NCBI GenBank assembly: GCA_963803095.1
Contig: CAWDLQ010000010.1
Span: 500,890-564,889, forward strand
Length of the DNA: 64,000 nucleotides
Origin: an uncultured Acidobacteriaceae bacterium
GTDB lineage: Bacteria; Acidobacteriota; Terriglobia; Terriglobales; Acidobacteriaceae
Reading direction: 5' to 3'
Each line of letters opens with the position of its first letter. The first letter of the stretch is position 1. Below are positions 6,201 through 40,000 of this stretch, piece by piece. A program made the translations under genes and the position numbers. The notes under the pieces were generated by a model that did no database searches, was not told the origin of the DNA, and was given only the letters and a program-made list of their open reading frames with translations.

Positions 6201-6437
6201 AAACTCCCCCCGATGGCAACGATTTCATCCATAAAGAGAGTTTGGTCTTCTCGACCTACCCCAGAAATCTCGAGAAAATTTTAGCTGCCACTAGCGAAAC
6301 GCAAATTCCAGAGCCTCCTCTCTCGCCCGGGCCGCTATCTTTGAAGAGCAGTGCGGCTGCTGAATTTACCCTGGAGGCTGAAAGATTATTGTTTCCCGCA
6401 AAAAATGAGGCGAAAAAATAATTCGAAGCTGGGGTTA

Positions 6438-6453
6438 GATTTCTTAAGAAATC
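6438..6453. promoter_or_regulatory. Perfect 16-bp palindrome GATTTCTTAAGAAATC in a divergent intergenic region (candidate operator)
   Basis: Read directly. It lies between the minus-strand start at 6200 and the plus-strand start at 6613. Confidence 0.35.
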
Positions 6454-6612
6454 CACTCTTTAGGGGTGAATGGACCCGATTTGCTCTTCGGAGAGCCCAC
6501 CAAGCTTCTCAACCGGAGCTTCGGCTCTACTGGCTCGATCTACCAACGAGGCGGGCCCCGTTCTATGCAAATTCACTTCGACTGGTTTTCTGAGCGGCTC
6601 AGAACTTACGAT

Positions 6613-7611: not shown

Positions 7612-7620
7612 GCGATGAGC

Positions 7621-22913: not shown

Positions 22914-25778
22914 ATGCGAACACGATTGGAGGCTATATTGACAAGCTGGCGGCGTTTCGAGATAAAGTGCAGCGCGGCGATGCTGCTCCTGTTGATGGGA
23001 TTTCCGGGCCTGGCGCGGGCGGCGAACCTGCCTCCGGCGAAGCCGCTGGTGGTGCCGGCGCTGCCCTATGAGAAGTACACCTTGCCCAACGGCCTCGACG
23101 TCATCCTCTATGAGAACCACAAACTCCCGCTGGTTGCGGTGGATCTCTGGTATCACGTCGGGCCGGTCAATGAGAAGGTAGGGCGGACGGGCTTCGCCCA
23201 CCTCTTCGAGCACATGATGTTCGAAGGCTCGGAACATGTAGGCGAGAAGGCGCACTTCAAATACCTGGAGGGCGCGGGTGCCTCCGACATCAACGGGACA
23301 ACGAACTTTGACCGGACAAACTATTTCGAGACCCTGCCGAGCAATCAACTGGAGCTGGGACTGTGGCTGGAGAGCGACCGCATGGGGTTCCTGCTGGAGA
23401 CGCTGGACCGGGCGAAGCTGACCAACCAGCGAGACGTGGTGCGTAACGAGCGCCGGCAGGGCGAGGGAACTCCGTATGAGCTGGCCGACGAGGCGGTGGG
23501 ACACCTCTTATTCCCCAAGACCCACCCTTATTACGGAAATGTAATCGGTTCCCATGCCGACATTGAAGCAGCGCGCCTGAACGATGTTCGCGACTTCTTT
23601 CAGCACTACTACACGCCCAACAACGCCAGCGTCGCAATCGCCGGAGACTTTGACCGGGCGAAGGTGAAAGCGCTGGTGGAGAAGTATTTCGGGCCGATAC
23701 CCCGTGGGCCGGAGCCGGAGAAGCCGGTGGTAGTCACTCCGCCGATCGAGACCGAGCGCCGGGCGACAGTGACCGATACCGTGCAGCTGCCGCGCGTTTC
23801 GATAGCGTGGCTGACGCCGGAGGCGTTCAAGCCCGGCGATGCGGAAGCGGATTTCTTCATGCGCGTGCTGGGCGGCGGAAAGACCAGCCGCTTGTACCGC
23901 AAGCTGGTATATGAACAGCAAATCGCGCAGACCGTGAAATGCGAGAACAACTCCCTCACCCTCACCTCGACGGCGCAGTGCGACGTAACCGCGCGCCCGG
24001 GAGTGAAGCCGGAGGACCTCGAGGCGGCCATCGACAAGGAGATTACTTTGCTGCGCGAGAAGGGGCCGACCCAGGCGGAGCTGGATGGCGCGCGCACAGA
24101 CATTCTGACGGCGAAGATCCGGGGACTACAGCGGCTGGGAGGATTTGGCGGCGTCGCGGACATGATGGACCGCTACAACCAATACCTGGGCAACCCCGGA
24201 TATCTGCCCAAGGACATCGCCCGCTTTCAGGCGGTGACCACGGCTTCGGTACGCGCGATCGGGCAAAAGGAGTTCGGCCAGAACCAGCGGGTCGTCGTCT
24301 ATGCCGTGCAGGGGAAAAAGGTCATCGAAGATGTCCCCCGTAGTCCGGCAGATACAGATGCGAACGTGACCGTGACGCCGCCCCATTCAAAGGAGTTCGA
24401 GACCGCGCAGAGCTGGCGCAAAGATCCGCCGAAGCCCGGGCCCGCTCCGGAATTGCATCTGCCGGTGCCAAAGACCTTCGCATTGCAGAACGGGCTGAAG
24501 GTCTACCTGGTGGAGGAGCACACCCTGCCAGTCATCAGCGCAACCTTGGTTGACCTGGCGGGGAGCGAGGAGAACCCTGCTGATAAGCCCGGACTGGCTG
24601 CTTTTGCCGCGCGCATGTTGTCGGAGGGCACCACCAGCCGTAGTTCGGTCGACCTGGCAGATGATGTGGATTCCATTGGCGCACAGCTGGCCACCAATGC
24701 CACCACAGACAGGGCGGGGGCAAGCATTGGGCTGCTAAGCAACAACACAGACGCGGCGTTTACGCTGCTGTCGGATGTAAGCCTGCATCCGGCATTCAAA
24801 GCGGACGAGGTGGAGCGCATCCGCAAGCAGACCCTGGTGGCCATCCAGCAGGAAGCCGATCAGCCTGTGGCCACGGTGCTGCGCGTGGGGCAAAAGACGC
24901 TCTACGGAGACTATCCCTACGGGTACAGGGACATCGGTACGACAGCTTCGGTAAAGGCCATCACAGGTGAGGAACTGCAGCGCTTCTGGAGCGAGCATTA
25001 TGCCCCGGGGAACGCGGCCTTGTTCCTGGCCGGCGACGTAACCGAGGCGGAGGCGCGGCGGCTGGCGGAGAAGAATTTCGGCAGCTGGAAGGCGGCCGAG
25101 GCAAGACCGGCGCAGATCCCGCAGGCTCCGCCCCCTCCTGCGTGCAAGGTCGTAATCGTCGATAAGCCAGGTGCTCCGCAGACGGCGCTGATTGCCTTTG
25201 GGCTGGGACTTCCCCGGTCCGCGCCGGATTACCCGGCAGTGAATGTAATGAACAGCGTGCTGGGGGGACTCTTCTCCAGCCGGATCAACATGAACCTGCG
25301 GGAGAAGAATGGCTTTACTTACGGCGCTTTCTCAGAGTTCCTGTTCCGTCGTGGAGACGGTCCCTTCCTTGCGGGTGCCCTGGTGCGGACGGACGTGACT
25401 GGGCCGGCGGCGCGAGAGCTGTTTGCCGAGCTGAATCGTATGCGCACCGATCCGGCAACGGCGGACGAACTGCGTTTGGCCAAGGAAAATGCGCTGCGTT
25501 CGCTGCCGGGCAACTTTGAAACCGTGAACGAAACCGCCGGGCTGATGTCGGAGATCTTCACCTACGGGCTTGCGCTCGACTACTACCAGAAGTTACCGGC
25601 GCAGTATGCGGCGGTGACAGCGGCGGAGGTGGAGAAGGCGGCACAGGACCACGTGCATCCGGAGAACCTGATCGTGGTCGCGGTCGGAGACCGGGCGAAA
25701 ATCCAACCCGAGCTGGAGAAGCTGAACCTGGGCCCCATCGAGCTAAGAGATGAAAGCGGGAACCTGGTGAAGCAGTAA
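22914..25778 (+). CDS. M16 (pitrilysin/insulinase) family zinc peptidase, double-length
   Basis: 954 aa. The inverted zinc motif HxxEH appears in 'FAHLFEHMMFEGSEH'. A second inactive M16 half follows. The start could be the ATG at 22980. Confidence 0.9.
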   Translation: MRTRLEAILTSWRRFEIKCSAAMLLLLMGFPGLARAANLPPAKPLVVPALPYEKYTLPNGLDVILYENHKLPLVAVDLWYHVGPVNEKVGRTGFAHLFEHMMFEGSEHVGEKAHFKYLEGAGASDINGTTNFDRTNYFETLPSNQLELGLWLESDRMGFLLETLDRAKLTNQRDVVRNERRQGEGTPYELADEAVGHLLFPKTHPYYGNVIGSHADIEAARLNDVRDFFQHYYTPNNASVAIAGDFDRAKVKALVEKYFGPIPRGPEPEKPVVVTPPIETERRATVTDTVQLPRVSIAWLTPEAFKPGDAEADFFMRVLGGGKTSRLYRKLVYEQQIAQTVKCENNSLTLTSTAQCDVTARPGVKPEDLEAAIDKEITLLREKGPTQAELDGARTDILTAKIRGLQRLGGFGGVADMMDRYNQYLGNPGYLPKDIARFQAVTTASVRAIGQKEFGQNQRVVVYAVQGKKVIEDVPRSPADTDANVTVTPPHSKEFETAQSWRKDPPKPGPAPELHLPVPKTFALQNGLKVYLVEEHTLPVISATLVDLAGSEENPADKPGLAAFAARMLSEGTTSRSSVDLADDVDSIGAQLATNATTDRAGASIGLLSNNTDAAFTLLSDVSLHPAFKADEVERIRKQTLVAIQQEADQPVATVLRVGQKTLYGDYPYGYRDIGTTASVKAITGEELQRFWSEHYAPGNAALFLAGDVTEAEARRLAEKNFGSWKAAEARPAQIPQAPPPPACKVVIVDKPGAPQTALIAFGLGLPRSAPDYPAVNVMNSVLGGLFSSRINMNLREKNGFTYGAFSEFLFRRGDGPFLAGALVRTDVTGPAARELFAELNRMRTDPATADELRLAKENALRSLPGNFETVNETAGLMSEIFTYGLALDYYQKLPAQYAAVTAAEVEKAAQDHVHPENLIVVAVGDRAKIQPELEKLNLGPIELRDESGNLVKQ

Positions 25779-25805
25779 TGATCGCCGAACCGCAAAAGGA
25801 ATCAG

Positions 25806-25985
25806 CGGGTTGATGCTCACCATGGTCGAGTTGAGCAATTTACCGCAACGCTGCGATCCGTAATGGTGCGATGGATGGTAACAGCGGACAAAAGGAAACA
25901 AAATCAGGCAGTTCGTCCCATCCATTAATATCCCGCACAGCGCCGTCGTAGACACATTCATTTGCCTCAGATTTTGGGATTTGGC
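25806..25985 (-). pseudogene. Truncated, frameshifted remnant of an RraA-like gene (paralogous to 34961-35136)
   Basis: The minus-strand reading 'YDGAVRDINGWDELPDFVSF' followed by 'RCYHPSHHYGSQRCGKLLNSTMVSIN' parallels 'YDGAVRDINGLDELPNFVAFVRYYDPSHHYGSLRSGKLLNSTMVSIN' of the gene at 34.7-35.6 kb. Both ends are missing. Confidence 0.75.
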
Positions 25986-26058
25986 AAGGTTGCCAAATAA
26001 GTCGTTTGTTTCATGAAGATGCTCAAGGTGCTCAAGTAATTCATTTGAGCATCTTGCC
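25981..26058. repeat. Repeat module shared with 17233-17336 (CAAATAAGTC.TTTGTTTCAT.AAGATGCTCAAG...), preceded by the small palindrome TTGGCAAGGTTGCCAA
   Basis: Direct comparison of the two loci. It contains the hairpin GCTCAAGTAATTCATTTGAGC. Confidence 0.75.
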
Positions 26059-26136
26059 TCGTTGGCCGGCGGGTACTAGAGCATTTTCACTTCTACTCCG
26101 CACAGTCAAGCGCCGCGAAGTGCGGCTTTTCTTCCA

Positions 26137-26160
26137 CCCCAGCAAGCTAGCTTGCTGGGG
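26137..26160. repeat. Perfect 24-bp palindrome CCCCAGCAAGCTAGCTTGCTGGGG (preceded by the small hairpin GCCGCGAAGTGCGGC + TTTTCTT)
   Basis: Read directly. It lies about 70 bp downstream of the ATPase stop (minus strand), at the left border of the accessory segment. Confidence 0.7.
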
Positions 26161-26226
26161 ACCCCGGTACTTGAGGAAAAGCCACGTCGGGAGTGGTTGC
26201 CCTGTATACACCAGAAGCGAAATGCT

Positions 26227-27609
26227 CTAATCCTCCGGAGGGGGCAAAGCCCACCACCAGGCACCTGATTTTCCGTCTTTGGAGCTACGAACGCCGATAT
26301 CGAATTTGGCGCGGCGCAGGGTGGCGATGCAGACACCATCGCGCTCGGCGGCTATCTCGATGGAGGCCTGGGTCTGGCTGCCAGGTTGCAGGCAGTCGCG
26401 CAGCCATTGGGCGGCAAACTTGCGCTTGGGCAGACCGGCGCCGGTGGGACGGGCGGCGAGGAGATCCTGCGGGGTGAGGCTGCTGAGCCCCGTCCAGTGG
26501 AAATTGCCGGCTTCTCCAATCCGGTAATCGAGCGGCGGAGCCAGCGGCCCAAGGTTCGATTTGACGTGCAGCAGAGCGGTTTGCGCGGGTGCGTCGGGGG
26601 AGCTGCCGACGAGAAACTCGGTGCGGAGAGCGGCAGAGCAGTCCATGGATGCCCGACCTCGATGGACAGACCTGCCGACGGTAGGTTTGGCGAGGTGGCG
26701 AATGAGGAGAATGCAGCAGCGGTGAAGCTCCGCCAGGCGGCCAAGACGATCGAGAAGAGGGCGGGTTTGCGAAGCGCGATCGAGGTCAACCTCCCAGAGA
26801 CCGTCCCAGGGATCGAGGATCACGAGGTGGGCCTGGGTTTTTTGGAGCGTGTGCTCGAGGTCGCGGAGGGCGGAGTCAGGCGAGGACATGGAACGCGCAG
26901 AGACGGCTCTACGCAGGATGACCAGGCGCGCGGGATCTCCGTGGAGGCCGGCGAAGCGAGGTTGAATGACTTGCGCGGCAGCGTGTTCCGCCGAGGCGTA
27001 AAGGACGGTAGCTGGTTTGAGCTTTTCGCAGGTGAAGGGATCGCGGCCGCGGGTCAGCGCTGCCGCGATGGCGAGGGCGACCCAAGTTTTCCCTGATCCG
27101 GGCTCCCCGGAAAGCATCGCTAACGTACCGGCGGCGAGCCTGTGCTGCCAAAGCCATTCGATGGGTTGGGGCTGGAGGTCGGCGAGGTAAACGATATCTG
27201 TGCCGGTTACGGTTGCGTCTGCATCCGCGGGCAACGGTGATGGCGTGTGAGGGGAGAGTGTTTCTTTCATTATGGCTTGCTGTGGGATCATCGCTTGCTC
27301 CAGGCTGGAAGGCCCCGCGGCGCTCTCGGTGCAGGAATCGGGCGAGACAAAGGAGAGATGCTCGATCGCCGGCGGGGTTGAGGCCTGGAGCCGGAAGGCT
27401 CGATTGGAGAAACGGTCGTTGGGCCGGTTGATGGCCATCTCGTCACCATTTGTGGAGCAGCCTCCGCTTTCATTGACAGTTATGCCGCGAGTGGCCGGGC
27501 GCAACGCAACAACGGTGCCTCCATGCGACCGGTTTGGCATAAAAATCTGTCTTATGGCCGACAGTAATACGCTCGGGAGCCGCCGTCCATGGCCCTGGGA
27601 AATAATCAT
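26227..27609 (-). CDS. AAA family ATPase, RepA-like/RecA-fold (AAA_25-type) with a C-terminal wHTH-like tail
   Basis: 460 aa. Walker A is in 'LAMLSGEPGSGKTWVALAIAAAL' and Walker B-like in 'HLVILDPW', with 'CCILLIRHLAK' following. This architecture is typical of mobile-element replication or primase-associated ATPases. The true start may be the internal ATG at 27291 or 27270. Confidence 0.75.
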   Translation of the reverse strand: MIISQGHGRRLPSVLLSAIRQIFMPNRSHGGTVVALRPATRGITVNESGGCSTNGDEMAINRPNDRFSNRAFRLQASTPPAIEHLSFVSPDSCTESAAGPSSLEQAMIPQQAIMKETLSPHTPSPLPADADATVTGTDIVYLADLQPQPIEWLWQHRLAAGTLAMLSGEPGSGKTWVALAIAAALTRGRDPFTCEKLKPATVLYASAEHAAAQVIQPRFAGLHGDPARLVILRRAVSARSMSSPDSALRDLEHTLQKTQAHLVILDPWDGLWEVDLDRASQTRPLLDRLGRLAELHRCCILLIRHLAKPTVGRSVHRGRASMDCSAALRTEFLVGSSPDAPAQTALLHVKSNLGPLAPPLDYRIGEAGNFHWTGLSSLTPQDLLAARPTGAGLPKRKFAAQWLRDCLQPGSQTQASIEIAAERDGVCIATLRRAKFDIGVRSSKDGKSGAWWWALPPPED

Positions 27610-27863
27610 GTGGAAGAGGGGGTAGTAAACTCGTGATTACTCGCTACTGTTCAAGAATGACGAAGTAGTTAGCCCCGATTTATCGACGGGCTTATTGGGC
27701 AAGAGGGGTACGTCACTGTCATCGCCTTTTTCGAGGAATCGTTTCGGCCTACTGCACGTTCTGCAAAGTTGAAATGCGTTCATGTTATGCCGGCGATGCG
27801 GAGCGCTAAAACTTCTGAAAAGTGGTGGCCGGTTCACCACTTCGAGCAAAGTTCCATTTCCGT

Positions 27864-27917
27864 CTGACCACAAATCTTGACCACAAATTTTCTGACCACA
27901 AATCTCGCCACAAATCT
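27864..27917. repeat. Four iteron-like direct repeats (TGACCACAAATCT / TGACCACAAATTT / TGACCACAAATCT / TCGCCACAAATCT), spaced 13-15 bp
   Basis: Read directly (cores at 27866, 27879, 27894 and 27907). They sit in a visibly AT-richer intergenic region about 260 bp upstream of the ATPase ORF. Confidence 0.8.
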
Positions 27918-28078
27918 CGAAGCTATTAATATCCAACGAACAACGTACACCCCTACTTACTTTCCATTCCTTCACCTAAACTTACTAAAGCATTCTGTTG
28001 ACGTTCGATATCTTCCGCGATATCTCTAGGTGCGTTCCCCCCGCGCACGACAATACCCAAAATTAGAAAGAGGTAAGT

Positions 28079-28943
28079 ATGCGTCCCGTGTACTATCTAT
28101 CTGCCTTGGGTCTCTCCGGCGCATTGCTGGGGACCCTACCCGCCACTGCGCAAATCTATTCCGTCACGGACCTGGAATACCACCACAAGCCCAGTTCAGC
28201 GGAGCATCGGGCATCAACCAATCGGGCCAGGTAATTGGCAACTACGGAACGAACGTGCCGGCCGGCCCCCTCTCCTCGTTTGTATACAGCGACGGCAAAG
28301 TCACCCTGCTTGATTTCTCTGCGGAAGGCATCGCCGGCGATGACCGCAAAAATGCGTGGGAGGAAGGAGACAAAAGGAAACTTCGCATCGCCGGCGTTCT
28401 CGGCAACTCTGCCGTCCTCTAGCAGGACAACTTTCTGCGCACCCTCGGTACGCTCCCCGGGTCTTCGGACAGCATCGGTTATGCGGTCAACTCCTCCGGA
28501 GAGGTTGCGGGGGTTGCGCTTTACTTAACCGGAACGGACCAAGCTTTCCTTTATAAAAATGGAAGCATGATCAACCTGGGAACGCTTCCCGGGGGGGGGT
28601 GGGAGCGGAGGCGTTTGCCATCAACGACGCCGGCGATGTGACAGGCGTGTCAGCTTTACCCAACGGATTTAACGGGTTTGGCCACGCATTTCTCTACCAC
28701 AAAGACAAGATGATCGATCTCGGCACAGTGCCAGGGGCGAGCGTCAGCTGGGGCCTGGCGATCAACAACTCTCTCCAGGTTGCCGGTTACTCGTTCTCGG
28801 CAGATTTCTCGATCTTTCACGCCTTTATCTGGAGCGACGGCAAAATCAAAGACCTGGGTGTTTTGCCCAACGGCAGCCAGAGCATGGGCAACAGCATTAA
28901 CTCATGGGGACTACTACAGTCCCGTCACCTGTTTTGGAACTAA
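28079..28943 (+). pseudogene. HAF-family extracellular repeat protein, multiply frameshifted
   Basis: Signal peptide 'MRPVYYLSALGLSGALLGTLPATAQ'. HAF-like repeats follow across three frames: 'GINQSGQVIGNYG...SSFVYSDGKVTLL', 'YAVNSSGEVAGVA...QAFLYKNGSMINLGTLPGG' and 'AFAINDAGDVTGV...HAFLYHKDKMIDLGT...HAFIWSDGKIKDLG'. Confidence 0.7.
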
Positions 28944-29134
28944 AGAAATGAGCGTTTCTGCGGAAACCTTGTGTGCAGCGTTCTGCTAAGGCTATGCGGT
29001 GTGCAGCTACAAGGGAATGATGGACAGACGGAAATGACTCTAATGCAACCGTATCTGATCGTATTACTCCGACACCGCTTTCCTTTAGTGTCAGCTGCGG
29101 GATCTCCTGTCTCGCATCTCCCAATGTTTGAGCG

Positions 29135-29524
29135 CTACGCTGCCAGAGGAACCAGACCAGACTTCACGATCATCTTGTCATGCGTCAGAAGGCGAATGCC
29201 CTCAACAATCGCGGTTGCTCCGATGATTCTGTCCTGCGGATCGTTTGGGTAGGTTTTTGGGAACTGGACAGCCCGAACCGCTATCTCCGGAGTGATAGGA
29301 AGAACCTGCACATAGGAAGTACATTTCTTCACAAAGGAATCGACGCTCACATCGATATCGATTCGCTTGTTCACTGCCAGCCATGCAATTTCCCAAAGGC
29401 TGATTGCAGAAAGAGCAAGCGGCCCGGATTTGCGGGCCGCCAGGATTGCCTTCTTTGCTTTTGCGGAAAGGTTTTCAGGAGCGATCAGAAGCCAGACGAG
29501 AATATGAGTATCGAGAAGGATCAT
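29135..29524 (-). CDS. vapC: PIN-domain toxin VapC
   Basis: ORF 29135..29536 trimmed to 'MILLDTHILVWLL' (ATG 29524). It has conserved PIN acidic residues (LLDTH..., 'LWEIAW', 'DPQDRIIGATA'). An ATGA overlap links it to the upstream antitoxin. Confidence 0.85.
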   Translation of the reverse strand: MILLDTHILVWLLIAPENLSAKAKKAILAARKSGPLALSAISLWEIAWLAVNKRIDIDVSVDSFVKKCTSYVQVLPITPEIAVRAVQFPKTYPNDPQDRIIGATAIVEGIRLLTHDKMIVKSGLVPLAA

Positions 29525-29751
29525 TCCACTCCCCAATCGCTGGCCGGGACTGTGTTCTCAATATCGCCCTTGATTCTGGCGATGCCTGACAAGGCTCCGA
29601 AGATCTCATCCTCACCTTCGTACGCAGGAACCAGCTTCACCACAGGTTTGCCATGCTTGGTGATTACAATGGGACGACCACTTTGCGATACCTGATCCAT
29701 CACAGCGAGGCATTGAGCTTTGAACTGCGCTGCGGCCATTTTTTGCATCAC
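29521..29751 (-). CDS. Phd/YefM family antitoxin (VapB-type partner)
   Basis: 76 aa. 'AAQFKAQCLAVMDQVSQSGRPIVITKHGKPVVKLVP' is the Phd/YefM fold signature. Its stop overlaps the vapC start. Confidence 0.85.
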   Translation of the reverse strand: MMQKMAAAQFKAQCLAVMDQVSQSGRPIVITKHGKPVVKLVPAYEGEDEIFGALSGIARIKGDIENTVPASDWGVE

Positions 29752-30275
29752 AATGCCTCTATCGATATGACCAGAATAATATGACCTCTTTTACGGAGTC
29801 AAGCCTGTCGATTTGCGGCTGCGTGCGCGAAATGTCTGTGGCCCGCCCCCCACAGTGTGTGGGGCTTGAGGGATGATCCGGGGGACAAGGATTTACTGAC
29901 TCTCGGCGCGTACAAAGGAACGCGCATTGTCACGCCCCGCTTTCGCAAGGGCGGCGCATTCCAGAAACATATCCATTTTGCTTAGCAGATGGAATTCTTT
30001 GGGAATACGGAAGGTCCATATAATCCTTAGAGTCATTGTGATCACTGACCGGTCGGTAAACATTTCGATCGTGCCGTGGCGTTTTTGATAAGTGGTTTGG
30101 TCTGCTCTCGCCACTGAGAATCGAAGTCATCGATAAGCCGACTTACGGGCAGTTCGACCGCTAAGAGCCTAATCCTAATCAACAGTCTCGCCTAATCGCA
30201 CCCTAAGTCCTGGGTGATATTATTCGGACAAAACAGGCACTGTTGGTAATTCATCCTGACGCTAAAGGAGCCAAC

Positions 30276-31763
30276 GTGAGAAGAACTGTCTGCGCCATCA
30301 GCCTCACTCTCCTTGCCATTGCCGCGCTCGGTGCCGGCGAGCCCAACTTCCGTCCCGACATCCCCAAGGCCTGGGACGACAAAGCAGTGGAGGGGTTCGA
30401 GTTGCCCCTGGCCCAGCGTGACCGCTCGCCGCGCTACATGACCTCCGAGCAATACTACGCACTTCAGGCCAGGCCCATCTATCGCTCCTACCCGGTCTAC
30501 GCCAAGGGCCTCGAGCCCGCAGGGTACATCGAGTCCCTGAAGCAAAAGGAGCCGGAGATAATCTTCGACCCCGCCAAACTGCACACGAAGCAGGACTGGA
30601 TCCAGGCGGGCAAGCTGATCTTCGAATACGACATCCGCTTCCTTCCAATAACTGCCGACCCGCCAACGGCCGACCAGGTTAAACTGCCAGACTCCGTGTC
30701 GAGCGAAGGCGTCCTTCTCCCCTCCTTCGGCCGCTTTCGCTACTACATACGCAAAAAAGGTGTATTGGAGCGCGGGATTAACGCCTGTGCCCAGTGTCAC
30801 ACCACCAGGCTGCCCGACGGCTCGTATCTAGAGGGTGGACAGGGCGACGAAGACGGTCCACTTACTGCCAGCGAGGCCAGCATCCGCGCCGCCACGCCGG
30901 AGGACTTCCAGAAAAGGGTGGATAGGGCTTGGCTCTACTACGGCGCTCCCTGGGTGATGTCAAAAGAAGACTTCTACAAGAAGTACACCAAGGACGAGTA
31001 CATCCGGATATCAACGGCGGCCCATGCGGGAGTGTTTGGGCGGCAGGGGACCAGTGCCACGCATCCTCCGCGCATCCCCTCTCTGATCGGCATTGCCGAC
31101 ATCAAATACCTGGACGCCACCGGCCTCGTTCGCAACCGCGGCATCGGCGACATTATGCGCTACGCCATCGTCAACCAGGGGCTGGATACGCTCGCCTACT
31201 ACGGGGACTTCCAGCCCGCCCCCGGTGCCCAGCCCTTCAGCGGCGAAGAGGGCACCCGCTATAGCGACGAGCAACTCTACGCGCTGGCGCTCTATGTCGA
31301 GTCCCTCAAACCACCGCCCAACCCCAACCCCTTCGACGAGCACGCCCGCCACGGTCAGCAAATCTTCACCGCCCAAGGCTGCCCAGTCTGCCACACCCCG
31401 CCCTTGTATACCAACAACAAGCTCAACCCGGTGCGCGGCTTCAAAGTCCCCGATGACCTGCGCAAGACCGACGACATCATGAGCACCTCCATCGGCACCG
31501 ACCCCACACTGGCGCTCGAGACCCGCCGCGGGACAGGCTTCTACAAAGTCCCCTCCCTGCGCGGCCTGTGGTATCGCCATGCCTTCAGCCACTCCGGCCA
31601 GGCCGGGACTCTGGAAGAATGGTTCGATCCGGCGCGTCTGGAGGAGGGCTACGACCCGAAGGGCTTCCACATCGGCCCAGGGCCAATCGTAGGCCACGAA
31701 AAGGGACTAGGTCTGACGCCAGACGAGAAACGGGATCTCATCGCCTTTCTGAAGACGCTGTAG
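30276..31763 (+). CDS. Exported dihaem c-type cytochrome (cytochrome c peroxidase-like family member)
   Basis: ORF 30243..31763. I prefer the GTG at 30276, which sits 5 nt after AAGGAG. It has a signal peptide 'VRRTVCAISLTLLAIAALGA' and two CXXCH motifs ('CAQCH', 'CPVCH'). Confidence 0.75.
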   Translation: MRRTVCAISLTLLAIAALGAGEPNFRPDIPKAWDDKAVEGFELPLAQRDRSPRYMTSEQYYALQARPIYRSYPVYAKGLEPAGYIESLKQKEPEIIFDPAKLHTKQDWIQAGKLIFEYDIRFLPITADPPTADQVKLPDSVSSEGVLLPSFGRFRYYIRKKGVLERGINACAQCHTTRLPDGSYLEGGQGDEDGPLTASEASIRAATPEDFQKRVDRAWLYYGAPWVMSKEDFYKKYTKDEYIRISTAAHAGVFGRQGTSATHPPRIPSLIGIADIKYLDATGLVRNRGIGDIMRYAIVNQGLDTLAYYGDFQPAPGAQPFSGEEGTRYSDEQLYALALYVESLKPPPNPNPFDEHARHGQQIFTAQGCPVCHTPPLYTNNKLNPVRGFKVPDDLRKTDDIMSTSIGTDPTLALETRRGTGFYKVPSLRGLWYRHAFSHSGQAGTLEEWFDPARLEEGYDPKGFHIGPGPIVGHEKGLGLTPDEKRDLIAFLKTL

Positions 31764-32086
31764 GCAGTCCGATCCTGTCGCCTAACCGTCTCCCGCGCTA
31801 AACCTGCTCGGAAATGGTGTTTTCTGAAACTTGCCCCGGAGATTGCAGTCGATGTGGCCCCAGTTGGTGCCACATCGTTCATCGAGCGATCCGATTTGCC
31901 TGCGAAGTCTTGTTTTCGGTAAGTTCCCGGCCTGGGCGGAAGGTCGGGCAGGGCAAGTTACCGATAACCCCGTTTTTCAGGCACTTCGTTGTGCAGGCCG
32001 GGCTTCTCAACGACCCGATTACTTCCTGTTTGCCGACCAAACGCCAGCGACTCACCAAGCCGTTCAGATTTCCGGCCTCGCTGAGA

Positions 32087-33436
32087 CTACTTGACGGCTC
32101 GCACCGAGGGCGGCATCCAAGACCCATCTAGGATTGAGGGGGCCTTCTCGTTCGGCCAATAGAGTCGCAGCATAAGCCCAAAGTTGCCCTCGGGAGACGG
32201 CAGCCAGTTGGCCTCCTTGACCTTGCCGGGTGAGTCTTTCTGGACATAGATGTCGAGTGACCCATCGTCATTCAAGTTGAATTTGCTTCGCTGGCTCAGG
32301 TTGACGCGGTCCAGTGGGTTGGGCACAAAGAACCCCTCGGGGTCATACATCGTTAGCGACCAAAAGCCCTTGACTGGCGGCTGTTCTCCCTTGGCGAAAT
32401 GAATCACATACTCGTGGGCGCCGCTCAGCGTTTTGCCTTCACCGTCCACTCTGGCGATTGGGTAAACGGCATCCTCTGGGAGGTTCCAGCCGGGGCCTAG
32501 CAAATTAAGGAATGCCCTGCGCGGGTAATCGGTGCCATAAACTCCGGCAGGCAGCGTGATTTGCCAGCCATTCACGACCTTGCCAGCGTTCGGCGCGAAG
32601 GCCATTATCTTTGCGAGAGCAGCCTTGGGAGCCGTCGCCACCTCCTGGGCGATAGCCGGGTCGAGCGTGCTGATATCCCAGTCATTGCCCGGCACAAGCC
32701 CGATCTTCGCCATTTGGGCGACCATCGGAGCATCGGCAGGCGTCGGCGGGTTGTCCTTCATCAGAGTCGCCAGGAGCTTGAAGTAGGCCGCAGCGTCCAT
32801 TCTGATGACTTGATCTTTCGTCGAAGTCTTCATATCAATGTCCGGATCGACCTTGCCGTTGGGTGGGGTGTACTGCTTGCCATATGCGCTCAGGGGAATT
32901 AGGGACAGCTTGTCCTGGAAGGAATGCACCTCCTCGTAGTCCTGCTCCGTGCCGGTGGTGTAGGTACGGCCGACGATCCAGACGATGTTGGTAGCCGATT
33001 TGTAGTGCATGACACCCTTAGGCAATTCACCCTTCCAGTGCGGCCCGGTGATGGCATAAGTCTGGGCCTTGTCTCCGGCCGTGCGAGTGCCTGGGGACTG
33101 AAATACGTCCGTCCAGCCGTCCAACATCGGAATCATGAAGTAGCGGCCCTCGGCGTCTGGAATCTTGAGAACGTAGGGTTCCTTGGCGAGGTCGAGCCAC
33201 GCCGAGGAATATAGCGTGTCGGCATTCGCACCCGGGATGTCTCGGTACGTGATAGGCGGATACTCCCGCGCATGAGCTAATTGGCCCATCGGGGCGCGCA
33301 ACCCAACAGGGGCGGTTGTGTTGGTGGTCACGCGCCGGGTCATTTCCAGGGTAACCAGCGGATAGCCGTAGATGTAGACATCCTCGGCGATAGCGCGGGT
33401 CTCGGCGGGACTGACATTGGTTTGGGTGATTGTCAT
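32087..33436 (-). CDS. DUF1254/DUF1214 domain-containing protein
   Basis: 449 aa. 'EDVYIYGYPLVTLEMTRR' is the DUF1254 start, and 'KGFWSLTMYD' plus 'NWLPSPEGNFGLMLRLYWP' are DUF1214 motifs. Confidence 0.8.
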   Translation of the reverse strand: MTITQTNVSPAETRAIAEDVYIYGYPLVTLEMTRRVTTNTTAPVGLRAPMGQLAHAREYPPITYRDIPGANADTLYSSAWLDLAKEPYVLKIPDAEGRYFMIPMLDGWTDVFQSPGTRTAGDKAQTYAITGPHWKGELPKGVMHYKSATNIVWIVGRTYTTGTEQDYEEVHSFQDKLSLIPLSAYGKQYTPPNGKVDPDIDMKTSTKDQVIRMDAAAYFKLLATLMKDNPPTPADAPMVAQMAKIGLVPGNDWDISTLDPAIAQEVATAPKAALAKIMAFAPNAGKVVNGWQITLPAGVYGTDYPRRAFLNLLGPGWNLPEDAVYPIARVDGEGKTLSGAHEYVIHFAKGEQPPVKGFWSLTMYDPEGFFVPNPLDRVNLSQRSKFNLNDDGSLDIYVQKDSPGKVKEANWLPSPEGNFGLMLRLYWPNEKAPSILDGSWMPPSVRAVK

Positions 33437-33559
33437 GCCGATGAGCTTTCCTTAATTTGTGTCTCATTTTGCCACGCGGGAGATGGCAGGACATATCTGT
33501 ACGTTTTTTTTACGTACCCGTCCTGAGACTTCCTTATTAATCCTTTGGCAGACTATTCA

Positions 33560-34290
33560 AAGCCAAACAGACGCGAATCGTGTTCCCAGTCGAATGTATG
33601 AGCATCTTGGGCTCTTCGCCAACTAGCAAAAATGACAGTCCAAACGGGAGATAGTCAGATCCACGCAGTGACTGCTCCCGGATCACGGGCAATGTGGAAG
33701 TGATCCCGCGAACTGCCTGAAAAGTCGCATTTTCGGTAACTTCCTCGGCCCGGCGCAGCATCCGGCTCGATGCCCAGCTTGTCATTGACTGCGTGAAGGA
33801 TCCGCTGCCGGGGACCTGCTAAGCCAAAGCGCTGGGACATGAGGTCATCGCCATGACTAACTCCGCGGATAAAGTGAATGACGCAAAAACTCTTGGCGCC
33901 GACGAAGTCCTCCTTCTCAAAAACCATGCGGGACAAGAGCTTGCTGGAATAGGTGGAGCGGACATCATCCTCTCCTTCTCTCCGGACATGAAACAGAACA
34001 GTCAGGCGTTGATAGGACTCTGCCCGGACGGCAGATTCGTCACCACGGCGCCGAGTGAAGAACCGATTCAGGTGGATCCCACGTCCACGCTCTTCAAGCA
34101 GATCTCAGTCATCGGCTCCGCGCACAATGACAAGGCCGATCTTGTCGATGTGCTGAAGCTGGCAGCAAACGGTAAAGTAAAACCGATGCTCGAAACATAC
34201 CCAATCGACGACTTGAACAGTGTCCTCCAGCGCCTCGCGGAAGGAAAGGTCCGCCACAGGGCCGTGGTCCTGCATGCCGCCGCCGGGTGA
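33560..34290 (+). pseudogene. Zinc-type/MDR alcohol dehydrogenase remnant (clear C-terminal part 33853-34290, degraded upstream part)
   Basis: ORF 33853..34290 reads 'SADKVNDAKTLGADEV...GGADIIL...KPMLETYPIDDLNSVLQRLAEGKVRHRAVV', an MDR C-terminus. The upstream in-frame reading '...C*AKALGHEVIAMTNSADK' contains a stop and lacks an intact GxGxxG. Confidence 0.6.
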
Positions 34291-34359
34291 TTCCAAAAAC
34301 CTAACAACCGGGACAAGCTCGGCCGAACCGGGACCGCTGGGGCACATTCAACGATGCAA

Positions 34360-34650
34360 TCGGGATTCTTTGAAGAGGTACTTTAGAGCGGGAGGAGACA
34401 AACCATTGCGGCACTCCATGCGCCTTTCCTTAAAGAAAGGCGCACGCGCGGCTTTGTCCGGTGCAGCGTGGAAGGAAATCCGGGTCGGGATGACAAAGGG
34501 GAGGGCGGCGCTTTCCTAGAACAGTGGGCTAGTGGTTGAGCGCAATCCTGGACAGCCTTCAGCCGTCCCTGCGGGACTTAAACCATGCTTGGTGACGATC
34601 TCCAGGACTGTCGTCCTGGGCTGAGTTCAGCCGTCCCTACGGGACTAAGG
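34360..34650. repeat. Cluster of short palindromic repeat modules
   Basis: It contains '...GGAAGGAAATCCGGGTCGGGATGACAAAGGGGAGGGCGGCGCTTTCC' (the same families as at 48.8 and 56.2 kb). It also holds two copies of 'TTCAGCCGTCCCT.CGGGACT' (34556-34578 and 34624-34648). Confidence 0.75.
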
Positions 34651-34655
34651 TCTAT

Positions 34656-35637
34656 TCACTGGTGCTCTCTCAAAATCTCTTCAATCTGTTCCTTAGGCAC
34701 GGACAGGTGATCTTCGTTCTGCTTCAACCATGCCCGGTAATCATCCTCGATAGCCGGTGTCCAGCGGGCGTCGATTTGCCCGGCGGTGTACTTCTTCTCT
34801 TCCAGCCTTTGATGTCCAAACACATCCCGAAGGTGGGTCGACTCCGAGCTCTTGACCACCTGCTCGGCAAGCTGCGGCGGAATGAAAATAACACCGCCAT
34901 TCCGGCCCAAAACGACATCCCCCGGCATCGCCGTTGCATGACCAATGCGGGTGGGACGCATTGATGCTCACCATGGTCGAATTAAGCAACTTACCCGATC
35001 GTAGCGATCCGTAATGATGCGACGGATCGTAATACCGAACAAACGCCACAAAATTCGGCAATTCGTCTAATCCATTGATATCCCGCACCGCGCCGTCGTA
35101 AACAATGCCATTGCCAGATTTGGCATAGATAGCATTGCCCACATTGTCGCCGATCGAAGGACCGTCCACCTTCAACCCAAAGTGATCGGCCACATAAACA
35201 TCGCGCGGCTGCAGCATATCCACGGGCCAGGCATTCATTGCGCCCTGCCGGTGGTCCTGCACGCCCTGTTCTTCGATCAGCTTCTGAATGTCCGGCCGCC
35301 CTGGCATCCAGGTTGCGGTGAGCGCGCGGCCCACCAGCACTTTGTCCGGATGAATCGAGAGCCAGCCGTCCTCATACTGATGCATGAAGCCCGCATTCTC
35401 CACCACCGCCCAAGCTTCTTCGAGCGTCACTGACTTCATCCGGTCGAGGATCGCATCCGGTACCTTGGGCCGTCCATCCGGGAACCGCTCCCCGTGCCAG
35501 TCGGGAGTGTACTTGATCACGTCGTCGCGGGTGAAAAATCCCTGCTGCGCTCGAGCCCCGAGAAACGCACCCCAGATCATCAAGGAACAAACCACCCCCA
35601 CCGCGGCGCGCCTGAATTGCCGAACCAATGCGTCCAT
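34656..35637 (-). pseudogene. RraA-like (RraA/dimethylmenaquinone methyltransferase/HMG-aldolase fold) protein with an N-terminal signal sequence; one frameshift near 34.96 kb
   Basis: Fragments 34741..35637 and 34656..34961. The frames join at '...NSTMVSIN|(x)RPTRIGHATAMPGDVVLGRNGGVIFIP'. The signal-like N-terminus reads 'RRAAVGVVCSLMIWGAFLGARAQQ'. Confidence 0.75.
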
Positions 35638-35642
35638 GTGCC

Positions 35643-36913
35643 CTATCCTTTATTCGGCTCAAACCACGTTGTTCCTGGAATCTGCACCTTCCTGGCCTCT
35701 TCTTCATTCATCTCCACTCCTAAGCCAGGCTTGTCCAGAGGAGTGACGTAACCCTGCTGGATGATTTCGCCCTCCTTGATAAAGTTCTTCCACGTGTCGA
35801 GATGATTGATCCAGTGCCACTCGCACACCAGGTAGTTGGGAATGGTAGCGCAAACGTGGGCCGAAGCCATGGTGCCGATGGGCGAAACCACGCAGTGCGG
35901 CGCAAACGGAACGTAATAGGCCTGCGCCATATTTGCGATCTTGCGCGCCTCCGAAAGCCCGCCTACCTTCTGGATATCCGGCATGATGATATCGGCCGCG
36001 CGCTTCTGCAGCAGTTCGGTGTAACCCCACCGCAGGTACAGATTCTCCCCGCAGCAAATCGGCGTAGTCGTTGAGTGGCGGATATCCGCCATGGCGTCGA
36101 TGTCCTCCGGCGGCACCGGCTCTTCCAGCCACAACAGCCGGTAAGGTTCGAGTGCCACCGCTACCCGCTTGCCGGTGGTGGCATCATAGCGGCCGTGCAT
36201 GTCGCAAGCCAGGTCCATTTCCTTGGGTATCGATTCCCGCACGTGCTTGACCCAACTGACCATGCGATCAATTTCGCCATTGCTCGCCGTCCAGTTCACC
36301 TTGTCGAAGCGTGCCGGATCGGCCGCGTCGTCGAGGTCAATCTTCATTGCGGTGAAACCCTGCTCCTTGATCCAGGGCAGCTTGCGATCCGATTCTGCGC
36401 CAACAGGATTATCCATGTCCGAGTCGCAGTACATGCGAACCTTGTCCCGGAATTTCCCTCCAGCAGTTGATAAACAGGGAGACCTAGAATCTTGCCCGTG
36501 AGATCCCAAAGCGCGATCTCAACCCCCGTCATCGCAGTCACGTACTGTCCGCCCTGGGCGCCGGCGAAGATTCCCGAGACCCGCATTCTCTCCCACAGCG
36601 CGTCGACGTTGAGCGGATCCTGCCCAATCAGCATGCGGCGAAAGCCGCGTACCAGGGAGGCCGTTCCGACGGCTGCATCCGTTGACTCGCCCTGCCCATA
36701 CAGACCGGAGTCGGTGTAAACCCGCACGTGCGTTTGTGGCCCGTGGACCAGCACCTGGGCAGTGCGGATATCCGTGATCTTTACCTTAGGCCGCTGCTGC
36801 GGCGTACTGTTGTCTTCAATCGCCCGCGCCAGGGAGGGAAGCGCGAAGATTCCGGCACTGGGCACAGCTGCAGCCGCGCCCTTCAATATTGACCTTCGTG
36901 TGAACTGACTCAT
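35643..36913 (-). pseudogene. Enolase-superfamily (mandelate racemase/galactonate dehydratase-like) enzyme with a Tat signal; one frameshift near 36.47 kb
   Basis: Fragments 36344..36913 ('MSQFTRRSILKGAAAAVPSAGIFALPSLARA', '...EIALWDLTGKILGLPVYQLL') and 35643..36509 ('GGKFRDKVRMYCD...AMKIDLDD...LWLEEP...'). Confidence 0.8.
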
Positions 36914-37075
36914 GGAATGTCCCTTTCGTCGAGCGATGGCATGAGTGATCGTGATAATGGCGCCGGCGATTTCAGCTCCGGTGGAGTCGTGCCGCGGATC
37001 CTTCGCTCCGTCTGGCCCAAAAGACCGGCCAAACGAAGCTCAGGATCACAGCAGCAAACGTTGGGCGAAACTGCC

Positions 37076-40000
37076 TTAGAACGTGTACCTGGCGCCTAGC
37101 TCCAGTTCCCGCCCACCTCCATTTGCACTTCCCGGAAGTGCATTTGAGCCCGTGATTTGGCCCGCGTTGGACCCATTCACATATTTGGTTGGGTTGCCGA
37201 AGTTGGTGTGGTTGAGGGCGTTGAACGCGTCAAACCGGAATTGTAACTGGTGGTGTTCGTTGTAAGGCATCTTGAAACTCTTGCCGAGGGACATATCGAA
37301 TTGCTGGTAGCCCGGGCCGTATAACATGTTGCGACTCGTGCTTCCGAGGAAACCCGGGGCCGGCTCCGGGAAGGCCGCGAGATTCACCCATTGGCCGTGG
37401 CTTCCGGCCGTTTTGTGGGACTGGAAATAGCTCTGTCCGGCGACGTAATTCGGCCGGGTCGCCGGTGTGCCGCCGGAAATGGTATTGGTACTGGCATTGT
37501 TGTCGTTGTACCCCATGTTGAACGGTACGCCGGTCTGGAGGGTGCCGAGGACGCTGAGTTGCCAGCCGCCAATCACTGCATCCACGATCTTCGACGAAGG
37601 CGCGTACATCAAGCCCGGGCCAATGGGCAGGTTGTAAATGAGCGAGCCAACAACGCGATGCTTAACATCGAAGTCCGAAGGCCCGTATTCGCAGCTGATG
37701 CAGAGGTCGTTCTGCGGGAAGAGCTCCGACGACTGGGTGCGGATTCCGCTGGTATCGTCCAGCGATTTCGCATAGGTGTAGGAGCTGATCAGGTTGAAGC
37801 CGTTGCTGAAGCGCTTGTTCACCTGGAAGGTGAGGGCGTTGTAATTCGCGTTGCCCAGGTCGTGCACTAACTGAATCACGCCATTGTTCGGGTAGGGCGT
37901 ACGCTGCGAGATGCTCAAAGGCGAACCATTCGCATTGTAACCAGCGGCGCCGAGCAACCCGTACGGAACCGAATAATTGGCATTGCGAAAGCCATAGAGA
38001 TGATCGGTTTTCGAACCCAGGTATCCGGCCTGGAGCTGCCAGTTCTGGCCGAGCTGCTTCTGGACATCGAGCAGCCAGACCTCGCTGTACGTAGTTTTGT
38101 GCCTGTACGCATTGGCGTAAGTGTAGGGCGGCGGTATGTTGGCAGTGGAGCCGCTGGCCACAGCGTTGCCCCAGTTGATGGTATTCAGGCCGGGAGTCCC
38201 AGCCCCCGAGGTTGTCGTGACACGCCCGGCCAGGTTACGGGCCACATCGAAGCGGGCGTTGGCGGTGTCATTGTCGTAATACAAGCCAAAGCCCGAGCGG
38301 ATGACCCATGTACTGTTCGGCGTGTAGGCAATGCCCAAACGGGGCGCGAAGTTGTTGTATTGGGTCTGCATGAGCGAGTTAGGGAAATTGCCGTTGGCGC
38401 ACTGCGGCCCCGGATTGACGGGGGCGCCACTGGAGTTGACCCAGCGGATGTTAACTCCCTGATACGGGTCAGTGCAGGTGCCCTCGCGTCTAAAGAAGGG
38501 CCACAGGCTCTGCGGCTCCGGCCCGGAGACAAAGGGGCTAATGGGCGAGTTGTTGGTTTGCAAATCCACGATGAACTCATTGCCCAGGATGTCGTGCCAG
38601 GGCGGAGTCAGCTCATAGCGGAGGCCGGCTGACACGGTGAGTTTGGGCGAGAACTTATAGTTATCGTCGACGTAGGCGGCCTCGACGTTGCGCTTGTAAT
38701 CGGCCTGCGCGATCTGCACCGCATACACCGATGTGTAAAGCTGGCCGAGCAGGAAGTCTGCGAACGCGGAGCCGGTTCCCTTGACCAGTTTCCCAGGGGA
38801 GCTGGCCTCAGCGGTGGCGTTGGCCTGGAAGGTGAATGAGCCGCGGGAGAACTGGTTGCCCAGCTCATTAAAGGTCTGCCGTTCGTACGTGAAGCCGAAG
38901 TCGAAGGAATGCTTGCCATAGACCCAGGTGATGTTGTCGCTGATCGAGATATTGGGGTCTTTGGTCACATAGGGACCGTCGGTGCTGTCGCCAAGCGCTT
39001 GGAAGATATCCCCTGTAAAGCTTACCGAGGGAATACCCCAGGTTGCAGGAATCCCGGGTTGAAGGCCGGGAATCCCGACCTTGGACACGGCGTCATTGAC
39101 GCCCTGCGAGAACAGTCCGAGAGAATTATAGAAATTAGTCCAGCCAAACGCGGCCACGTTGACGATCGTGGGAGAGATGGTCCAGGTGTGGGAGCCCATG
39201 TACTGGTAGTAGCTGGTGATGATATTGCTGCCGGTTGTCCCGCCCGCCGTCTGGAATATCGCGGTGGGGTTCGTTTCCAGGCCATTGCTGAAGCGGAAGC
39301 CGAACTGCTGCTTCGATGACAAGTAGTAATCACCACGCACGTTGAAGCCGTCGTGAGTGTCCCTTACGGATTGGAGGAAGGTGTAATTGTTCTGAAACAG
39401 GTTGTTCTGAGCCGGGGCGTAGAACAACTGGATGAACTTCAGTGAGGTAGGATCGATGCGGCTCGCCGGAATGACGTTGCCCGGGAACTGTGTCCTGCCC
39501 GTGCCGTTGGGGTTCCCGGTGGCGGGATCGTAGATGGGAACGACGGATCCGTTTGCGGTTGTGGTGTACTGGCTGAAATTGCCGCCCAGGACGGCCTGCG
39601 TCGGCAGGGTGTACCCGGTATTCGAGAGACTGATTCGGGAATACCATTCGTCGTTGACCATAAAGAAGAAGCGGTTCTTGCCGTTGAAGACGTGGGGAAT
39701 CGAGATCGGTCCGGTGAGCACGAATCCGTAGTCGTTATATTTATAGGGGAACGCGGCGGGTTGAGGAGTGGGATAGAAATAGTTATACCCGAGAGCATCC
39801 GCGTAGTTGTTGCGAAGGAAGTAGAACCCGGCGCCGTGATAATTGTTGCTGCCGCTCTTGGTGACCACGTTGACCTGGGTCGCGTTATACCCGTATTGGG
39901 CGGGATAGACGCCGGTTTGCACCTTCAATTCCTGGATGGCGTCGATGGAGGGCTGGACCACATAGCTGTTGAAGTCGGGGTCGGAATTGTTGATGCCATC

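Follow-up and report, generated by a model that had tools for sequence, protein, structure and literature searches.

Positions 25780-34657 of a 64,000-nt stretch of DNA from an uncultured Acidobacteriaceae bacterium (GCA_963803095.1, contig CAWDLQ010000010.1, positions 500,890 to 564,889; the whole stretch is called the window below) are a strain-specific mosaic islet that replaces the entire spacer between two convergent genes, one encoding an M16 peptidase and the other an RraA-like protein. One border of the islet is formed by a module that encodes an AAA_25 P-loop ATPase and is followed by a fragment of an RraA-like gene (the RraA' stub, or copy A), which resembles a part of the full-length resident gene at the other border (copy B). 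The initial annotation of this region read the two copies as a partial direct duplication of the resident gene, left by an element that had integrated into, or recombined between, copies of an RraA-like gene and then decayed. Our analysis leads to a different view: the "direct duplication" is an intact resident gene juxtaposed with an imported pseudogene fragment, not a local target duplication. The explanation that we favor overall, and to which we assign a probability of roughly 60%, is that of a mosaic islet in which an imported module with its stub was inserted in a homology-guided event and a deletion followed.

The extent of the islet was defined by comparison with relatives at the same locus, which were collected in a scan for the M16 peptidase that took one genome per species and gave 80 loci. 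The closest is L003, the uncultured Acidobacteriaceae metagenome-assembled genome (MAG) MFD01248.bin.1.32, with ~96% nucleotide identity to the window; L004 follows with ~89-95%, and L009 and L002 with ~82%. The closest relatives found are MAGs, and the window itself is probably one as well. Of the 80 loci, these four have an RraA-like gene beside M16, and in all four the M16 gene is directly followed by a convergent, intact 326-aa RraA-like gene, with a gap of ~1.9 kb in L003, 352 bp in L004, 800 bp in L009 and ~45 bp in L002. Homology of the window to the four ends at 25776-25779, ~5 bp past the M16 stop codon (megablast and blastn), and resumes exactly at the RraA stop codon at 34658. No part of 25780-34657 was found in any of the 80 M16 loci, nor did any of them have a second RraA paralogue next to M16, so the suggestion that the segment is accessory is well borne out. 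A stretch of 82 bp behind the M16 stop and one of 49 bp in front of the RraA TAG are common to L003 and L004, and the window lacks both, indicating that the whole spacer was replaced by 8.9 kb and that the resident gene was left uninterrupted. The resident stop codon is TGA in the window as opposed to TAG in L003 and L004, and it is followed by a pair of Acido-Lenti-1-type repetitive extragenic palindromic (REP) elements of the kind found behind RraA' in L085-87; L003 and L004 have different sequence at this position. The M16-RraA spacer is an insertion hot spot, and its content differs in every relative. That of L003, for instance, holds an IS110-family transposase at 13109-14188 (Transposase_20 and DEDD_Tnp_IS110).

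The partial duplication of RraA-like sequence is real as such. When the window is compared with itself by BLASTN, 25810-25974 aligns in direct orientation with 34961-35121 at 80.6% identity over 165 columns, including 4 gap columns (E = 2e-36), and a repeat search of the window recovered the same pair as direct repeats D2 and D3. Both copies are on the minus strand, and copy A, on the left, encodes NECVYDGAVRDINGWDELPDFVSF and YHPSHHYGSQRCGKLLNSTMVSIN across two frames. The further claim that these repeats bracket the segment is correct only in that the repeats exist: the right copy lies within the resident gene, 305 bp past the islet's right border (34657), and the repeats are thus not at the borders as attachment (att) sites would be. 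The resident gene itself, which matches the Pfam RraA-like family (PF03737) with 35.6 bits against a cut-off of 24.5, is native throughout. Its product is 98.7% identical to that of L003 over residues 1-227 and 100% identical over residues 228-326 (tblastn), and identity to L003 along the whole length is 98.6-100%; at the nucleotide level, the 3' part is 98.6% identical to L003, which lacks the island, and the last 178 bp contain 2 mismatches. RraA-like homologues are 80-92% identical in amino acid sequence across genera, and the orthologues of L003 and L004 are intact at 326 aa. An integration into this genome's RraA-like gene, or a duplication of it, is not compatible with a resident gene that is uninterrupted and native from end to end.

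Copy A tells a different history. It differs by 19% from the resident gene, as compared with ~4% between the window and L003, and it has replacements (G to E, I to C, L to W, D to H and L to Q) at positions where 114 functional homologues show no variation. A functional donor allele as the source of this divergence was considered and ruled out on account of those same residues. RraA-like stubs of variable length also follow the terminus of most other copies of the module. The stub is ~22 nt long in the L092 and L133 types and extends to "DING" in L094 and L107; in L085-87 it runs to "VRD" and from there passes to the final 11 codons and the stop, with an Acido-Lenti-1-type REP behind them. The L091 stub covers codons ~211-262, and that of L110 runs from the same junction to the contig end, both stubs continuing to codon ~262. 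The stubs share two small insertions (GAGGCAAATGAATGTGTC vs G-GCAA-TGGCATTGTT) not seen in any of five functional genes with which they were compared, and the same distribution is seen for NECV/NESV in place of NGIV and for further third-position states. These derived states are common to the stubs of the window, L085-87, L094, L107, L127, L091 and L110, which indicates that copy A arrived with the module; the genomes with AAA_25 modules whose stubs share the derived states of copy A are only ~74% identical. Judged by these positions, copy A is evidently an old pseudogene of a module-associated lineage and not a recent copy of the resident gene. Its divergence, its changes at invariant residues and its kinship with module stubs elsewhere together dispose of the idea that it is a duplicate of that gene.

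These results bear directly on the reading closest to the initial one, in which a site-specific element inserted into this genome's RraA-like gene, duplicated its target as attL and attR, and later lost its integrase. Much about the locus looks right for such an event: the two copies are in direct orientation, relatives (L002, L003, L004 and L009) have a single RraA copy and an empty site beside M16, and a gene as highly conserved across genera as the RraA-like gene is what att targets usually are. Even the order of resident gene, island, ATPase end and displaced 3' fragment resembles an element that carries a replacement 3' end. However, the resident gene is continuous and its 3' part matches the island-free L003, the repeats are 80.6% identical and lie off the island borders, and copy A is not only 19% diverged with changes at invariant residues but also groups with module-borne stubs from other hosts. 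There is also no integrase among the scanned open reading frames (ORFs). Pfam scans of all sizeable and leftover ORFs in 25.8-34.7 kb gave no integrase or recombinase, in agreement with the description of the segment as a mobile-element remnant without an integrase, and the islet is now immobile because no recombinase is present. The window contains no tRNA or tmRNA target. We consider this reading very unlikely and already largely refuted.

The resident gene is split into two ORFs by an extra base at 34957 (GGGACGCATT vs GGGA-GCATT in L003 and L004), and the homology of copy A had been noted to begin where this frameshift lies. The position is right, as the homology ends 4 bp from the extra base. 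As evidence, the frameshift is weak: the stubs of L091 and L110 run past this point, so that 25810 is a secondary deletion endpoint, and sporadic 1-bp indels separate the window and L003, with conserved genes broken in both assemblies. Those broken in the window are the RraA-like gene (34957), a galactonate-dehydratase-like gene (36460) and a DUF4331 gene (13998), and in L003 the M16 gene is affected (L003 10569). Since the closest relatives are MAGs, assembly error is a live explanation. An assembly-type indel is the probable cause of the +1 frameshift in the resident gene, and all four single-base indels are probably consensus errors rather than marks of pseudogenes. The resident RraA-like gene is best treated as intact, pending read-level evidence.

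Window-specific, mostly synonymous differences from L003 and L004 are clustered at 34904-34914 and 36030-36087, which suggests short recombination tracts from diverged alleles. Gene conversion of copy B by A-type sequence was tested and rejected: 5 of 9 informative window-specific sites match the module type against ~3 expected, which is not significant. The patch of window-specific changes in the neighboring dehydratase gene is at least as dense as that in copy B. Recombination tracts of this sort are nevertheless one of the points in favor of an allelic import, in which the island was assembled in another lineage with the M16-RraA arrangement and entered the window's lineage by homologous recombination inside the M16 and RraA coding regions. 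The patches show that such tracts are common here, and the exact breaks in homology to L003 and L004 at the two stop codons, with replacement of the whole spacer, would be expected. However, neither M16 nor RraA has a donor-like tract at its 3' end, the mismatch density to L003 being flat there. An import would also only shift the question of origin to the donor, and it is compatible with the explanation we favor rather than opposed to it. As an account in its own right, we regard it as quite unlikely.

The module with which copy A traveled is a unit of ~1.7 kb (25978-27730, with an inserted miniature inverted-repeat transposable element, or MITE, excluded) that occurs with 90-97% nucleotide identity in >40 loci with different flanks; these contexts were gathered by exact look-up and a metagenome scan. 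Its structured 3' terminus consists, in gene orientation, of a hairpin, then ...ATTTGGCAAC(G/C)TTGCCAAATC, a 20-22-bp palindrome or near-palindrome, with ATTTGGCAAC/GTTGCCAAAT as sequence forms. The terminus is 92-98% identical in >35 loci, and the end of homology is sharp across contexts. Its DNA fold has a z score of -3.6, and the pattern is unique in the window, where 0.01 chance matches are expected. At least four unrelated sequences follow it, the junctions reading CACCCCAC in L081/L082, AGGTTCGG in L083, L084, L088, L111 and L117, and TTCGTGG in L123, whereas most copies have the RraA-like stub there. A direct repeat, TTGCCAAA, at both module ends was considered as a boundary signature and rejected, being present in only ~1/3 of the full-length copies and absent from the window. 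At the other end, homology to other copies ceases at 27671-27729, within the conserved promoter or leader region. The iteron-like repeats beyond it, found with Tandem Repeats Finder (TRF), also occur near other module copies at variable distance and orientation, with 80-86% identity in L083/L088 (7.6 kb), L091 (inverted), L094 (2.4 kb) and L126.

The ATPase matches PF13481 with 96.7 bits (cut-off 27), and its GxxGxGKT P-loop is invariant in 30 homologues. More than 100 homologues with 76-93% identity are found in soil and peat metagenomes and in Acidobacteriaceae MAGs. An AlphaFold2 model shows a RecA-like core and a confident C-terminal winged helix, with a mean pLDDT (predicted local distance difference test) of 57. 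Foldseek returned weak matches (E ~5e-3) to RSF1010 RepA (1g8y, 1nlf and 1olo), KaiC and Twinkle. For a model of this pLDDT, the target-normalised TM-score to the three RepA structures is 0.38-0.43, and the KaiC matches are equally good. Searches of PDB sequences and NCBIfam gave nothing useful for its annotation, and no exact-sequence record was found for the 460-aa ATPase ORF or for the DUF1254 protein of the islet. PLSDB holds relatives of the ATPase only at <=34% amino acid identity and a phage collection holds none; there is no close match to an autonomous plasmid copy of the module in PLSDB or among phages. For the DNA block of the islet as a whole, plasmid matches are confined to DUF1254 genes at 65-68% identity, and the phage search gave no hits. 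A full-text search of the literature found no description of an Acidobacteria AAA_25 element and no relevant Acido-Lenti-1 biology.

Several lines of evidence show that this module is widespread, horizontally mobile and selfish in Acidobacteriaceae. Its neighbors include beta-lactamase and MacB genes (L081, L082), an M3 peptidase gene (L083/L088, L085-87, L091) and a 3-keto-disaccharide hydrolase/PQQ (pyrroloquinoline quinone) cluster (L133-139). Third-codon identity between the window and L085, L083 or L091 is 0.88-0.92 in the ATPase gene as compared with 0.57-0.58 in the adjacent M3 peptidase gene, so the module must have moved horizontally long after its hosts diverged. Substitutions in the ATPase gene amount to 4.6%, 2.9% and 8% at codon positions 1, 2 and 3, a pattern that indicates only weak constraint. 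Metagenomic copies with both ends kept and differing internal deletions of the ATPase gene were seen, for example, in L110-L112, L115-L118, L120, L122-L124 and L126-L129; copies like these are typical of decaying or non-autonomous derivatives. The module also marks an island edge in L133-L139, seven contigs of one species with 99.6-99.9% identity, which are variable upstream of it and identical downstream: L136 departs from L133 ~435 bp upstream of the ATPase gene into unrelated genes, and the differences among the other contigs lie further upstream, in Rhs/YD-repeat cassettes close to a ParE gene (positions ~1-9566). Nor did at least 20 other loci show an integrase within 10 kb of the module. 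The recurrence of the same module-plus-stub structure in independent assemblies argues against a chimeric contig joined through repeats, which might otherwise be suspected of a window that is probably a MAG, like its closest relatives, and that differs from L003 by sporadic 1-bp indels which break conserved genes in both. No long or near-identical repeat lies at the junctions (that of RraA measures 165 bp at 81%), and both flanks are collinear with L003 and L004, so that an assembly artefact is hardly credible.

As the initial annotation proposed of the element, the module family probably did join an RraA-like gene, and it would have done so at codon ~171-173; the part that fails is that this happened in the present genome. 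L085 and L091 are plausibly close to the original module-RraA junction site, because the stub there faces the M3 peptidase gene and, in L085, retains its natural stop codon and downstream REP. The REP element behind the stub lies at 11226-11367 in L085, and the same kind is present in L086/L087. In L146, an RraA orthologue is located ~5.7 kb from an M3 peptidase gene. The window itself carries a fossil of the module terminus at its own M3 gene, 81-91% identical to 25978-26058 and to the termini of L081-L088. L003 shares this fossil, and a full module sits at its exact position in L083, L085-87 and L091. The fossil lies within a 727-bp stretch (16925-17651) with a 36-nt inverted repeat, 89% complementary, at its ends. 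In L001 and L002, the M3 and M16 genes are adjacent; in the window, ~6 kb with genes for a LytTR regulator, a histidine kinase, a short-chain dehydrogenase/reductase (SDR) and a DUF2141 protein lie between them, and this interval thus has the appearance of an older island whose edge is of the same type.

Table 1. Coordinates of the features of the islet, its flanks and the fossil terminus (positions in the window).
Feature	Position	Strand	Description
Fossil module terminus	17217-17336	-	Downstream of M3 peptidase gene, same orientation as live copy; degenerate palindrome, 39-bp internal tandem duplication
M16 peptidase gene, left flank	22914-25778	+	954 aa; Pfam Peptidase_M16 and M16_C
RraA' stub (copy A)	25810-25977	-	Codons ~173-226; decayed, two frameshifts; left end 25810 is a secondary deletion endpoint
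Module structured 3' terminus	25978-26077	-	20-bp near-palindrome ATTTGGCAAGGTTGCCAAAT at 25979-25998; 11-bp-stem hairpin 26016-26055
MITE	26078-26227		150 bp; 16-bp terminal inverted repeats (GAGCATTTTCACTTCT), TA target duplication, internal 24-bp perfect palindrome
AAA_25 ("RepA-like") P-loop ATPase gene	26227-27438	-	~403 aa; mechanical ORF extends to 27609; C-terminal winged helix
Module upstream (promoter/leader) region	27439-27730	-	Conserved; homology to other copies ends at 27671-27729
Iteron-like region	27788-27920		Four 13-14-bp direct repeats (TGACCACAAATCT) at 27863-27920
HAF-repeat gene remnant	28030-28943	+	Frameshifted; TIGR02913 HAF_rpt, E 1.4e-17 and 0.015, separate ORFs
Type II toxin-antitoxin pair	29135-29751	-	PIN toxin 29135-29536; Phd/YefM-type antitoxin 29521-29751
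Dihaem cytochrome c cassette	30071-31885	+	Gene 30243-31763, 506 aa, two CXXCH; Pfam Cytochrom_C
DUF1254/DUF1214 region	31945-33752	-	Gene 32087-33436; Pfam 152.9 and 120.7 bits; flanked by 44-nt inverted repeat (I1)
Zinc alcohol dehydrogenase C-terminal remnant	33853-34290	+	~140 residues, ~197-335; ADH_zinc_N; NCBIfam profile 196-335
REP-like pair	34546-34646	+	Directly 3' of resident RraA-like gene; second is Acido-Lenti-1 (RF01687, 49.4 bits, 34601-34646); direct repeat D5
Resident RraA-like gene	34656-35637	-	326 codons; native, uninterrupted save +1 insertion at 34957; copy B is 34961-35121

The gene content that had been listed between the two copies was confirmed in full by profile searches and repeat scans (Table 1). 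For the toxin-antitoxin pair, both the PIN (72.7 bits) and PhdYeFM_antitox (37.4 bits) scores are above their cut-offs, TIGR01552 also matches, and the genes overlap by 16 bp. The view that these 9 kb are one decayed element does not survive, since the HAF, Phd/PIN, cytochrome, DUF1254 and alcohol dehydrogenase (ADH) sequences are in none of the other module loci and the cytochrome cassette is differently flanked in a 97%-identical contig; the 9 kb are thus not one coherent element. That contig, L131, shares only 30071-31830 with the window (96.9%) and has a DUF1761 gene in its flanks, and L132 is 79.6% identical and starts at the same left cassette boundary. The cytochrome has one 98% homologue, the one on L131, and no other above 75%. 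Apart from the module, the cargo is a patchwork of unrelated cassettes. The observation that 27.6-30.2 kb is AT-richer was correct: 27731-30200 has a GC content of 52.4% vs 58.3% and 59.9% in the flanks, with a tetranucleotide z of 2-3, and the rest of the islet, including the ATPase, cytochrome and DUF1254 genes, is compositionally like the flanks or host. Two 22-bp direct repeats of the AGGGCGGCGC type (29948-29969 and 34502-34523; 82% identical, REP-like) bracket the part with the cytochrome, DUF1254 and ADH sequences. The Acido-Lenti-1 RNA match, the sole match of an Rfam search over the window, acts as a dispersed REP-type repeat, in tandem after the RraA stop and with further copies across the loci.

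The MITE in the module may be assigned to the Tc1/IS630-like type from its TA duplication. It lies in the ATPase stop codon, which it changes from TAA to TAG, and no other module copy has it at this site. A 220-bp sister copy is found in L003 (8137-8356) at the equivalent of window position ~21283, where the window is empty. To the right of the islet, the resident gene belongs to a conserved cluster (34656-40591) that also encodes a CarboxypepD_reg/OMP (outer membrane protein) beta-barrel receptor and the galactonate-dehydratase-like enzyme of the enolase superfamily. The latter has a twin-arginine-type leader (RRSILKGAAAA), and the RraA-like protein has an N-terminal signal-like segment. Exported forms of such normally cytoplasmic enzyme families would be unusual.

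A patchwork of this kind in a spacer that differs in every relative, with an IS110 element in L003 and REP-like repeats at cassette borders in the window, raises the question whether the resident gene and the stub came together by chance, as unrelated arrivals by the module's own transposition or by REP- or insertion sequence (IS)-mediated events in which RraA homology played no role. The module is, after all, also found beside many non-RraA genes, and the finding was noticed precisely through the closeness of the two copies. Against such a juxtaposition, the prior of landing within ~10 kb of the single orthologue is ~0.4% per insertion (an estimate for a genome of ~5 Mb), the loss of both native spacer ends needs extra events, and the M3/M16/RraA neighborhood hosts the module repeatedly. 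We think that chance is an unlikely explanation.

Homology-guided insertion next to the resident RraA-like gene, with a deletion afterwards, would instead be the most likely route. An ancestor of the module may have joined an RraA orthologue once, at about codon 171-173 (TAT GCC AAA TCT), and the stub would have been inherited since. Its travel with the module is directly visible in the loci described above, and its origin we infer to be an old scar from this ancestral joining. The DNA that entered the window's lineage would have carried RraA' from codon ~173 to the natural end at codon 326 together with the downstream REP, as in L085. Recombination with the 3' end or the downstream region of the resident gene, whether Campbell-like or by homology-facilitated illegitimate recombination, could then have left the island immediately behind the 3' end of the resident gene and the stub, in direct orientation, at the far side of the island. 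A single later deletion, reaching to 5 bp past the M16 stop, may have taken out the native spacer together with stub codons 227-326, and the MITE would have landed in the ATPase stop codon later still. Recombination and deletion of this kind would account for the direct orientation of the copies, the start of the island at the resident stop codon, and the changed stop with a REP behind it. Native spacer would be absent beside the resident gene because it would go to the distal copy.

Several observations weigh against this scenario. The 3' end of the resident gene contains no module-type tract, which means that any crossover must have occurred in the REP or no more than a few bases from the stop codon, where the homology is thin. 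Finding REP elements on both sides carries little weight, given how common this type is, and stub and resident gene could lie together by chance, helped by the selection of the finding. In intact module-bearing islands, neither the far end nor a recombinase at that end was seen, and no locus gave an integrase within 10 kb. Finally, host-derived stubs formed anew at each insertion appear to be excluded by a few tens of shared-derived positions only.

A more far-reaching idea is that the AAA_25-winged-helix module, together with the palindromic terminus and the iteron block, is an autonomous, integrase-less mobile element of an undescribed kind, with the RraA-like gene as its primary target, that nucleates strain-variable islands across Acidobacteriaceae. 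Such an element might move by helicase- or replication-driven transposition or with the help of a host recombinase, and the window would then be a copy caught beside an unoccupied target. We put this forward tentatively and consider it doubtful at present.

Acidobacteria abound in soil, and little is known of their mobile elements. The islet itself is an ordinary decayed islet in a hypervariable spacer. The AAA_25 module, very abundant and spreading horizontally in soil Acidobacteriaceae, is worth specialist follow-up, and pangenome and MAG analyses would profit from an island-border marker and, possibly, a new mobility mechanism. The locus also holds a caution, in that a gene fragment beside a full-length homologue need not be a local duplication.

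Among known systems, the islands that target the 3' part of a conserved gene, such as a tRNA or tmRNA gene, guaA or dusA, are the closest in outward appearance: they too have a fragment of a conserved single-copy gene as a direct repeat and a strain-specific segment with a toxin-antitoxin pair and pseudogenes where relatives have an empty site. The islet differs in having no integrase, in copies that are 81% identical and off the borders, and in a resident gene that was never split, the fragment having been inherited with the module across hosts. The replication module of IncQ/RSF1010 plasmids, with iterons and the hexameric helicase RepA of the PF13481 superfamily, offers a likeness in the RecA-like AAA_25 ATPase, the weak RepA fold match and the four short direct repeats nearby. 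Here, however, RepB primase and RepC initiator are both missing, the ATPase has a winged helix fused to its C-terminal end, and no free plasmid copy is found in PLSDB, all copies seen being chromosomal and many internally deleted. With integrative mobile elements exploiting Xer (IMEX), integrase-less elements that depend on recombinases of the host (CTX-phi and the gonococcal genetic island at dif are examples), the module shares the lack of a recombinase gene in or near it and a sharp end at a palindromic site. It differs from them in that its copies are at many chromosomal positions and no circular form or paired second end was identified. The REP-, MITE- and IS-seeded intergenic hot spots, finally, resemble the islet in a spacer that varies from relative to relative, in Acido-Lenti-1 REPs together with a MITE, and in unrelated cassettes; what sets the islet apart from them is that one of its borders is a spreading protein-coding module with a conserved terminus.

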